From a virus (Duplodnaviria; Heunggongvirae; Uroviricota; Caudoviricetes), in IMG/VR virus record IMGVR_UViG_2541047857_000009: 64,000 bases of DNA, one strand, 5' to 3'. The notes beneath the pieces were generated by a model. The model did no database searches and was not told where the DNA came from. It saw only the letters and a program-made list of their open reading frames with translations. A program made the position numbers and the translations under genes. The number at the start of each line of letters is the position of its first letter. Position 1 is the stretch's first letter. Shown here in pieces: positions 33,836 to 34,921 of the stretch.

Positions 33836-34921
33836 CTAAATAAAACGCCTTGTAAATTTTGCTATTTTTTTCTCAATCAACGAGTGAACTAAGCACCCTG
33901 TAATAATGCTAAATAACACATAAAAAGCAAGGTACATAAATACACTGGTATGCAGATGTAGTTCCAGTCGCTCCCACCAGTGCGCAAGCAATGATGTAAA
34001 TAAGCCATGTATGAGGTATATGCAGTACGAAGCATTACCTAAGTAAACTAATATATTCGGAGTCTTTACTTTACCCTCAAGGCTAATTGTTGCCCATACG
34101 ATGTAAAAAGAAAACGCTCCCCATATAAGAGGTCTGTGCCATAAGTTCCCTACATACGTAGTTATTAAATATTTTTCAAGGATATAAAATAAAGGCAACG
34201 AACAAATCAATATAGCAGTAGCAAGTTTGGCGTTAAGAAATATTTTTGATATGTACAGTCTGTACATAAACATACCCAAAGCAAACTCAATCATTACTGG
34301 CTGAGAGATTACCTCAATTGGAGGGAAATACGCTTTAATAAAATTTGCGGCATGCTCGTTTTTAACTAAAATGTTACAAACGATAACTATTGTCACAAAT
34401 GAAATTTCTATTTTCTCTATTTTTGAAACGCCAATTGCAATAAAAATAGCGAAGATAGCATAAAAGAAAAATTCAAACTGAAGAGTCCACCCAACACCTA
34501 GTATTGGTCCCTTATCCCAATGGGTGAACGTTATGCTCCTAAAAAAATACACTAAATCTATTTTATCAGATGGAAACCAAAAAAGTAACGGTCTTGCTGG
34601 GGAGGTGATTTGGTATGAAACCAAATAAGAGACATAAACAGCACATGCCGTAAGGATAATATATAAAGGAAGTATCCTAACCAATCTTCTTAAAAAGAAC
34701 TTTGCCGCTGAAATATTAAATGGCCCATCAGCTTTTTTACCTCCATAAGCAATAAAAGGCATTATAAACCCACTAATTATAAAAAATATATCAACACCTA
34801 TACCACCAAGGCCTGACATCCTTATTCCATACATTACAATCTCAGAATGTGCAATGACGACAATCAATGCGGCAAAGAAGCGCAATACCTGTATGTTATA
34901 AATTGTTTGTTTGTTATCCAT
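33836..34921 (-). CDS. Acyltransferase family 3 membrane protein (OafA/Oac-like O-antigen acyltransferase), lysogenic-conversion moron
   Basis: N-terminal VLRFFAALIVVIAHS and about ten TM segments; strongly AT-rich; convergent with tailspike. Confidence 0.8.
   Translation of the reverse strand: MDNKQTIYNIQVLRFFAALIVVIAHSEIVMYGIRMSGLGGIGVDIFFIISGFIMPFIAYGGKKADGPFNISAAKFFLRRLVRILPLYIILTACAVYVSYLVSYQITSPARPLLFWFPSDKIDLVYFFRSITFTHWDKGPILGVGWTLQFEFFFYAIFAIFIAIGVSKIEKIEISFVTIVIVCNILVKNEHAANFIKAYFPPIEVISQPVMIEFALGMFMYRLYISKIFLNAKLATAILICSLPLFYILEKYLITTYVGNLWHRPLIWGAFSFYIVWATISLEGKVKTPNILVYLGNASYCIYLIHGLFTSLLAHWWERLELHLHTSVFMYLAFYVLFSIITGCLVHSLIEKKIAKFTRRFI

Follow-up and report, generated by a model that had tools for sequence, protein, structure and literature searches.

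The window analysed here is a stretch of 64,000 nucleotides from IMG/VR virus record IMGVR_UViG_2541047857_000009 (Caudoviricetes), and the gene under study, at positions 33836 to 34921 on the minus strand, encodes a predicted membrane O-acyltransferase of the acyltransferase-3 (AT3) family. The gene is carried by a prophage and lies tail to tail with a tailspike gene in which an SGNH/GDSL esterase domain is predicted. Window positions 31000-35300 are 100% identical to sequences of Escherichia coli XJ5.2 and 20A24, and most of the prophage is common to 20A24. The features of this locus are as follows.

31217..33799, plus strand: tailspike gene, 860 amino acids, with matches to Tail_spike_N and Lipase_GDSL_2
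32822..33391, plus strand: predicted SGNH/GDSL esterase domain of the tailspike, about residues 536-725 (Pfam; S542, G578, N606, D719, H722)
33805..33824, no strand assigned: G+C-rich hairpin, a likely two-way terminator, with a T-run after it on the plus strand (folding)
33836..34921, minus strand: acyltransferase gene, predicted AT3-only membrane O-acyltransferase, 361 amino acids (Pfam, PHROG, motifs, model)
34922..35258, minus strand: AT-rich region upstream of the acyltransferase gene, 337 bp, 32.6% GC (composition)

The open reading frame at 33836..34921 begins with ATG and encodes an intact AT3 protein of 361 amino acids, with VLRFFAALIVVIAHS at residues 12-26. Residues 7-342 matched profile positions 1-321 of the 326 in Pfam Acyl_transf_3 (PF01757) with a score of 91 bits (cutoff 31; E 9.6e-26), and the protein also matched PHROG 3333, 'O-acetyltransferase' (E 7e-63). 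The GC content of the gene is 34.5%, compared with 55% for its TipJ neighbour, about 54% for the remaining prophage and 50.8% for the whole window. The AlphaFold2 model is all-helical with about 10 long helices (pLDDT 94.5, pTM 0.92), and the hydropathy peaks are concordant with it. The earlier note on this DNA had described an AT-rich convergent gene for a polytopic membrane protein with the N-terminal signature of Acyl_transf_3, and the reading frame, base composition, Pfam match and helical model all bear this description out.

Analysis of the protein revealed the motifs R14-X10-H25, GGIGVD (39-44), FFIISG (46-51) and R79-x-x-R82; R14, H25, F46, F47, S50, G51 and R79 were found to be invariant in 79 homologues. 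The motifs R/K-X10-H in helix 1, FFxISG in helix 2 and RxxR before helix 3 define AT3 proteins and are essential in OafA and Oac (PMC7448272). GGIGVD resembles the GG-F/Y-x-GV-D motif that fused-type proteins have at the periplasmic end of helix 2, being one residue shorter. AT3 is the sole Pfam domain; the model stops at the last helix, with neither an 11th helix nor a fused C-terminal SGNH domain. A phmmer search of the PDB with the protein gave no match even at E 10, and Foldseek with the model returned chance transporter matches alone (TM about 0.2). The gene is under purifying selection, with dN/dS of 0.08-0.09. From its sequence, 33836..34921 most likely encodes a working AT3-only inner-membrane O-acyltransferase with acetyl as the transferred group.

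The stop codons of the convergent tailspike and acyltransferase genes are separated by 36 bp, and the hairpin between them has folding energies of -13.5 kcal/mol on one strand and -12.5 kcal/mol on the other (z -2.5 and -2.6, respectively). The acyltransferase thus has the position of a moron, as the earlier note had it: convergent with and downstream of the tailspike, like oac in phage Sf6. One promoter-like site was found upstream, at 35018..34989 (GTGTCA-18-TAAAAT with an extended-10 TG), identified by consensus match only. Phase variation of the Dam/OxyR type, as in gtr and oafB, was considered and rejected, the acyltransferase gene and the upstream gap having zero GATC sites. In two of 10 distinct Proteus prophage places (L052 and L055, Proteus mirabilis), the acyltransferase frame is broken at codon 96 by a change of a homopolymer from T8 to T9; the remainder of the gene is near-identical to intact copies. 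Slipped-strand phase variation, decay and sequencing error are all conceivable causes of this change. The allele in the window is intact and has T7 and A7 runs only.

The tailspike consists of a Tail_spike_N adaptor (residues 1-130), a middle part without a Pfam family (136-520), the SGNH esterase domain and a C-terminal region. The middle part may carry a second activity. The adaptor assignment is based on a Tail_spike_N match (E 8e-17) and on alignment of residues 1-133 with gp13 in PDB entry 9occ (E 7e-45); gp63.1 of phage G7C, also found in the PDB search, aligned in the N-terminal adaptor domain alone. The Lipase_GDSL_2 match scored 36.9 bits against a cutoff of 32.9. S542 (in GDS), G578, N606 (in GVND) and D719-x-x-H722 were invariant in nine tailspike homologues, including those at 28-29% identity. 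The AlphaFold2 model of the tailspike, built from nine sequences, was poor (pLDDT 48, pTM 0.31). A search of cultured phages with the receptor-binding module found nothing closer than uncharacterised proteins of Aeromonas and Enterobacter phages at 25-30%, and PP99 and G7C were not returned. The tailspike is predicted to be a deacetylating receptor-binding protein carrying an SGNH esterase domain.

The acyltransferase has few close homologues, which are 100% identical in E. coli, 85% in Buttiauxella and 52-55% in Morganella, Proteus and other E. coli. Comparison of their loci revealed members of one AT3 clade (52-91% identity) at 32-36 bp from an esterase receptor-binding module (67-88% identity) in E. 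coli, Proteus, Buttiauxella and Morganella. The E. coli pair was seen in prophages at both the yciB site and the argW site, and the same acyltransferase-spike pair was found in Proteus mirabilis prophages. In Buttiauxella the spike is frameshifted and the acyltransferase intact. Two phages of Morganella morganii have an identical acyltransferase, in both cases 35 bp from a GDSL tailspike; one of them is a siphovirus whose spike has the Tail_spike_N adaptor, and the other is a podovirus like P22, whose spike has the P22 head-binding adaptor. Over residues ~130-860, the receptor-binding part, the spikes of E. coli and Morganella share 81-88% identity with one another, and for Proteus the figure is 67-69%. 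The pairing of the acyltransferase with an esterase tailspike proposed in the earlier note is upheld by the tail-to-tail genes, by the GDSL domain above the Pfam cutoff and by this evolutionary linkage to the SGNH receptor-binding module.

The receptor-binding module also occurs without the acyltransferase, on a T7-like phage contig and on two other siphovirus contigs. No integrase was seen in the stretches read of these phages, which are presumably virulent. This distribution is consistent with a gene of use to the lysogen and with a receptor that does not depend on the gene. Overall, the pair is a recurrent but not obligatory cassette of temperate phages.

The galF-gnd cluster of 20A24 is of the 'S88 variant O45' type, with the gene order rfbB, rfbC, 6-deoxytalose-type reductase, glycosyltransferase, wzx, GT2, wzy, hexapeptide acetyltransferase, rfbA. 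O45-group O-antigens contain 6-deoxy-L-talose (PMC7685785), and from the gene content of the cluster we infer that the S88 variant carries O-acetylated 6-deoxytalose. The segment from wzy to the glycosyltransferase of S88-variant O45 was present in 37 of 5426 complete E. coli genomes. All seven genomes with the tailspike module (20A24, XJ5.2, L73, 2452, EC21Z-063, M37H and YZLc4-1) are among these 37, and the six that have either of the two close acyltransferase alleles all belong to them as well; the sister prophages with other spikes all lie in genomes outside the 37. The probability of this co-occurrence by chance is 3.8e-16, or 2.9e-7 when three independent prophages are counted. The restriction of the tailspike, and of the acyltransferase, to one host O-type supports the O-antigen as their shared substrate.

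In a collection of 5.8 billion proteins, homologues of the Wzy were found only in E. coli, Proteus mirabilis (78%), Buttiauxella sp. A111 (69%) and one metagenomic sequence. The Proteus O-cluster is syntenic, and the Buttiauxella Wzy is seemingly on the same contig as the cassette. These genomic matches suggest that the cassette follows one O-antigen type across genera, Proteus being matched at the species level. The 81-88% identity between E. coli and Morganella spikes had suggested enterobacterial common antigen (ECA) or another conserved glycan as receptor. This was rejected, because in E. coli the cassette is confined to one rare O-cluster, O45(S88), whose Wzy is common to the other genera.

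Eight prophages of the siphovirus family that have a common TipJ protein were compared for the slot after the tailspike. An AT3 gene follows the tailspike in all eight, and the spikes are of the GDSL esterase type, another SGNH type, a glycerophosphodiesterase type, two beta-helix types and a YadA-like type. The AT3 proteins behind the other spike types are unrelated to the window protein or just 28-37% identical to it. The slot itself does not vary, and what it holds shifts in step with the receptor-binding part of the spike. At the level of this family a special tie between acyltransferase and esterase is not supported, since beta-helix, glycerophosphodiesterase-type and YadA-like spikes also have an AT3 gene in the slot. 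In E. coli EF7-18-51 (L006 7218-8453) a short tailspike annotated as glycerophosphodiester phosphodiesterase family is followed by a hypothetical gene and then by an unrelated AT3 gene; this locus would be a further case of a receptor-binding enzyme other than a glycosidase in company with a gene for surface modification.

Some more distant relatives of the acyltransferase (35-38% identity; Enterobacter, Ewingella and Pseudomonas) are followed by an overlapping or closely adjacent GDSL/SGNH gene of 370-415 amino acids. Such a GDSL gene, translationally coupled, follows in four of eight loci of relatives at this identity, and a signal peptide is present in the one partner examined (Enterobacter). 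Loci with separate AT3 and SGNH genes are L014 (11065-12180), L011, L012, L013 and L007 (9534-10217). In E. coli XJ55 an IS5 element lies between the AT3 gene and a small SGNH gene bearing a signal peptide. An AT3 gene with an adjacent SGNH gene amounts to a split version of the fused OafA architecture. Capture of the SGNH domain of the tailspike from such a partner gene was considered and rejected, as the BLASTP similarity was not significant.

Our preferred reading, with a probability of roughly 0.68, is that the acyltransferase is a lysogenic-conversion O-acetyltransferase like Oac of phage Sf6, acting on the O45(S88)-type O-antigen that the tailspike recognises. Within it we infer that acetyl is the group, that the O-antigen is the acceptor, that the site is apart from that of the native acetyl and that adsorption is affected. 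The gene would be transcribed separately, from the AT-rich upstream region towards the end of the late operon, stopping at the shared hairpin. In the lysogen, the acyl group would be taken from cytoplasmic acyl-CoA through a membrane pore served by R14/H25, FFxISG and RxxR, and would be placed on the host O-antigen at the periplasmic side. The acceptor would be the S88-variant O45 O-antigen, with its 6-deoxytalose genes and cluster-encoded acetylation, that is, the same polysaccharide the SGNH tailspike would recognise. The module works on phages that lack the acyltransferase, and an acetyltransferase is already encoded by the host cluster; the phage enzyme therefore probably attaches an additional acyl group and does not make the receptor. 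The added group would alter the receptor, so that the lysogen would adsorb its own phage, and probably other O-antigen-specific phages, less well, and the serotype would shift, as with Oac of Sf6 and OafB of BTP1. We propose that a shared specificity for one polysaccharide accounts for the linkage of acyltransferase and spike, in which case the two genes could recombine between temperate phages as a two-gene cassette.

Several results weigh against this reading. None of the NCBIfam models matched the acyltransferase, and its identity to Sf6 Oac is 25% over 169 residues (E 2e-6), which is distant homology only. The promoter scan found fewer sites than in shuffled sequence, and the promoter call is weak. 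E. coli prophage YZLc4-1 has the receptor-binding module without an acyltransferase of this clade. Between the window and L73, whose hosts have an identical O-antigen cluster, the spikes are 86% identical and the acyltransferases 55%, and DNA similarity ends at the 3' end of the spike gene; hence the two genes are not strictly co-inherited. A third allele of the clade, with about 66% DNA identity to the L73 type, was found in E. coli O15:H18 ST69 (L045 6866-7957) and five other genomes. It is convergent after tail-fibre and tail-fibre-assembly genes in a myovirus-like prophage, in hosts that are not O45(S88), and its place after ordinary tail-fibre genes indicates that the clade is not limited to esterase spikes. 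Furthermore, a blocking acetyl group might in principle be taken off by the esterase, and the logic of exclusion would then be weaker.

A second explanation, which we regard as unlikely, takes the two enzymes as a lock-and-key pair, in which the acyltransferase installs either the same ester that the tailspike esterase strips off or esters on the same 6-deoxytalose residue. The lysogen would be shielded from other phages and from host defences, and virions with the matching esterase would strip the shield or escape from debris. The opposite chemistries and the tight gene linkage across genera and virion types agree with this explanation, and 6-deoxytalose can be acetylated at several positions, all of which are cleared by the gp55 tailspike of phage PP99. 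However, the module is also present on presumably virulent phages and on one prophage without the acyltransferase, so that its substrate does not depend on the phage gene; an acetyltransferase is already encoded in the host cluster; and AT3 genes also lie behind non-esterase spikes in the sister prophages. It is equally doubtful that the pair is a mobile cassette for writing and erasing a single O-acetyl mark on one kind of O-antigen, O45(S88) with its 6-deoxytalose, in E. coli, Proteus, Buttiauxella and probably Morganella. If this were true, acetylation of the O-antigen would shut out rivals and only virions with the matching esterase would remove the mark, and a temperate phage acquiring the cassette would gain both a shield and the means past it.

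Very improbable, in our estimate, is a split OafA-like system, in which the acyltransferase is the membrane half that passes the acyl group to a separate periplasmic SGNH transferase, either host-encoded or lost, and is perhaps weak or inactive alone. The coupled GDSL protein in four of eight loci of the 35-38% relatives and the arrangement in XJ55 would suit such a system, but a partner gene is absent from the cassette in E. coli (two alleles), Morganella (two phages), Proteus and Buttiauxella, and the acyltransferase is under strong purifying selection. Nor does the tailspike suggest itself as the missing half: it is a virion protein made in the cytoplasm, and its SGNH domain has no BLASTP similarity to the partner SGNH proteins. 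R14 together with GG-x-GVD is typical of AT3 domains fused to SGNH (Pearson et al., PMC7448272), yet AT3-only enzymes such as Oac function alone (PMC7448272). Least probable is that the substrate is some other envelope glycan (ECA, colanic acid or capsule, osmoregulated glucans, peptidoglycan) and the position a favoured moron insertion site after the late-operon terminator: AT3 enzymes have many substrates (PMC9558356), the cassette in four genera at first suggested a conserved target such as ECA, and some AT3 gene is in the slot of every sister prophage, but the cassette is confined to one rare E. coli O-type and to genera with a homologous Wzy and cluster, the acyltransferase type changes whenever the spike type does, and the same acyltransferase tracks the same receptor-binding module onto a P22-like podovirus.

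The extent of the prophage was determined by comparison with the uninterrupted yciA-yciB region of K-12. The element in 20A24 begins with an integrase beside yciA, and the comparison revealed a single 47-kb insertion from the integrase end to window position ~37855, with junctions that overlap by 8-11 bp. A direct k-mer search for att repeats found a chance-level 10-mer only, and the junctions were set by the K-12 empty site instead.

37856..37866, no strand assigned: right junction, attR core of about 8-11 bp, at the 3' end of yciB (K-12 empty-site comparison)

The acyltransferase, the AT-rich gap, umuD', umuC and SRAP are all within the 47-kb insertion. Sister prophages at the yciB site have umuD with or without umuC, and then SRAP, after the acyltransferase slot; those at argW (tRNA-Arg) have an S24/umuD-like gene and then the integrase; and in Buttiauxella SRAP lies beside the acyltransferase. 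Because there is one insertion in the K-12 comparison and the same gene order in the sisters, umuD'C-SRAP is the right arm of the same prophage and not a separate island. The earlier note had placed the acyltransferase as the last prophage gene before an AT-rich gap and a umuD'C island; the gap and umuD'C do follow, but the prophage continues to about 37855.

A perfect LexA (SOS) box, TACTGTATGTATAAACAGTA, is present at window positions 35236-35255, directly upstream of the umuD-like gene. This gene encodes a short S24 protein without the N-terminal arm of UmuD, and its counterpart in a sister prophage is annotated 'HumD family'; its sequence implies a pre-activated UmuD'. Together, umuD', umuC and the YedK-like SRAP gene look like a LexA-controlled damage-tolerance module. 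Elsewhere in the first prophage, a match to an isrJ-like small RNA and a tRNA gene are present (window 8769-8841 and 9202-9273). Both fall in a 6-kb Nin/Q/lysis stretch, window 7276-13418, that departs from the 20A24 prophage, which is near-identical elsewhere. The gene that follows the large terminase (L001 4069-5418 in 20A24; about window 15070-16420) is annotated in RefSeq as 'anti-CBASS protein Acb1 family protein', and its position suggests a portal protein. Beyond ompW, window 40157-64000 diverges from 20A24, which, with the phage-type RNA genes there, indicates a second prophage. The RNA genes are as follows.

44737-44788: DicF
51563-51737: sok
56258-56504: three tRNAs
56583-57260: two copies of STnc100

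Among known systems, Oac (OacA) of Sf6 has the same arrangement: an AT3-only enzyme of a temperate phage, convergent with the tailspike about 33 bp away, with a terminator between the genes and its own promoter. The R-X10-H, FFxISG and RxxR motifs are common to Oac and the window protein. Unlike the window spike with its esterase domain, however, the Sf6 spike is an endorhamnosidase; oac is followed by the integrase, whereas the window gene is followed by the LexA-controlled umuD'C-SRAP module; and the host O-antigen is another one. The Oac homologue of PhiV10 (E. coli O157) is likewise a phage-encoded AT3 enzyme. It alters the O-antigen of its host and confers immunity to PhiV10 itself (PMC9558356), again with another O-antigen. 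A tblastn search of phage records with the acyltransferase at E <= 1e-5 recovered neither Sf6 nor PhiV10.

OafA and OafB of Salmonella (OafB being the family II GtrC of prophage BTP1) are O-antigen acetyltransferases with an AT3 domain, OafB being prophage-encoded, and R14, H25 and a motif like GG-x-GVD occur in the window protein. They differ in having an 11th helix and a fused periplasmic SGNH domain, whereas the window protein ends after AT3; in addition, oafB is phase-variable through Dam sites, and the window gene has zero GATC. Oac and OafB are reported to protect lysogens by hindering the tailspike of their own phage (PMC9558356).

SGNH enzymes of tailspikes include G7C gp63.1, the petal domain of epsilon15 gp20 and fibres of Klebsiella prophages (for the last, PMC13123978), which deacetylate surface polysaccharide and do not cut it. 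The tailspike gp55 of Pectobacterium phage PP99 deacetylates 6-deoxy-L-talose of the host O-polysaccharide (PMC6989608). G7C and PP99 are virulent and without an acetyltransferase, whereas the window element is a prophage with an acyltransferase. For epsilon15, inhibition of host O-acetylation, and not an addition to it, has been proposed (PMC9558356). SGNH esterases were recently reported to rank with the commonest enzyme domains in receptor-binding proteins of Klebsiella prophages, and what they are for biologically is not clear (PMC13123978). The closest study is the same work on Klebsiella prophages, in which SGNH fibres and prophage acetyltransferases were both noted, unlinked (PMC13123978). 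Our literature search found no account of a temperate phage that has both enzymes as a transferable cassette tied to one defined O-antigen type. Each of the two by itself is known already: phage AT3 O-antigen acetyltransferases next to tailspikes, and esterase tailspikes.

The locus offers a tractable E. coli system for studying what esterase spikes recognise and how lysogens defend themselves, with a known and clinically relevant host type (O45:K1 S88), two natural acyltransferase alleles and natural phages with and without the acyltransferase. If our reading is right, the O45(S88) serogroup should contain O-acetyl variation that has gone unrecognised, with consequences for serotyping and for the design of glycoconjugate vaccines. 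Sf6 and BTP1 are textbook cases of acetyltransferases that convert the serotype and lie next to a tailspike gene, and the tailspikes in the reviewed cases cut the sugar chain, whereas here the phage and its prophage carry predicted activities that are chemically opposite towards the same polysaccharide.

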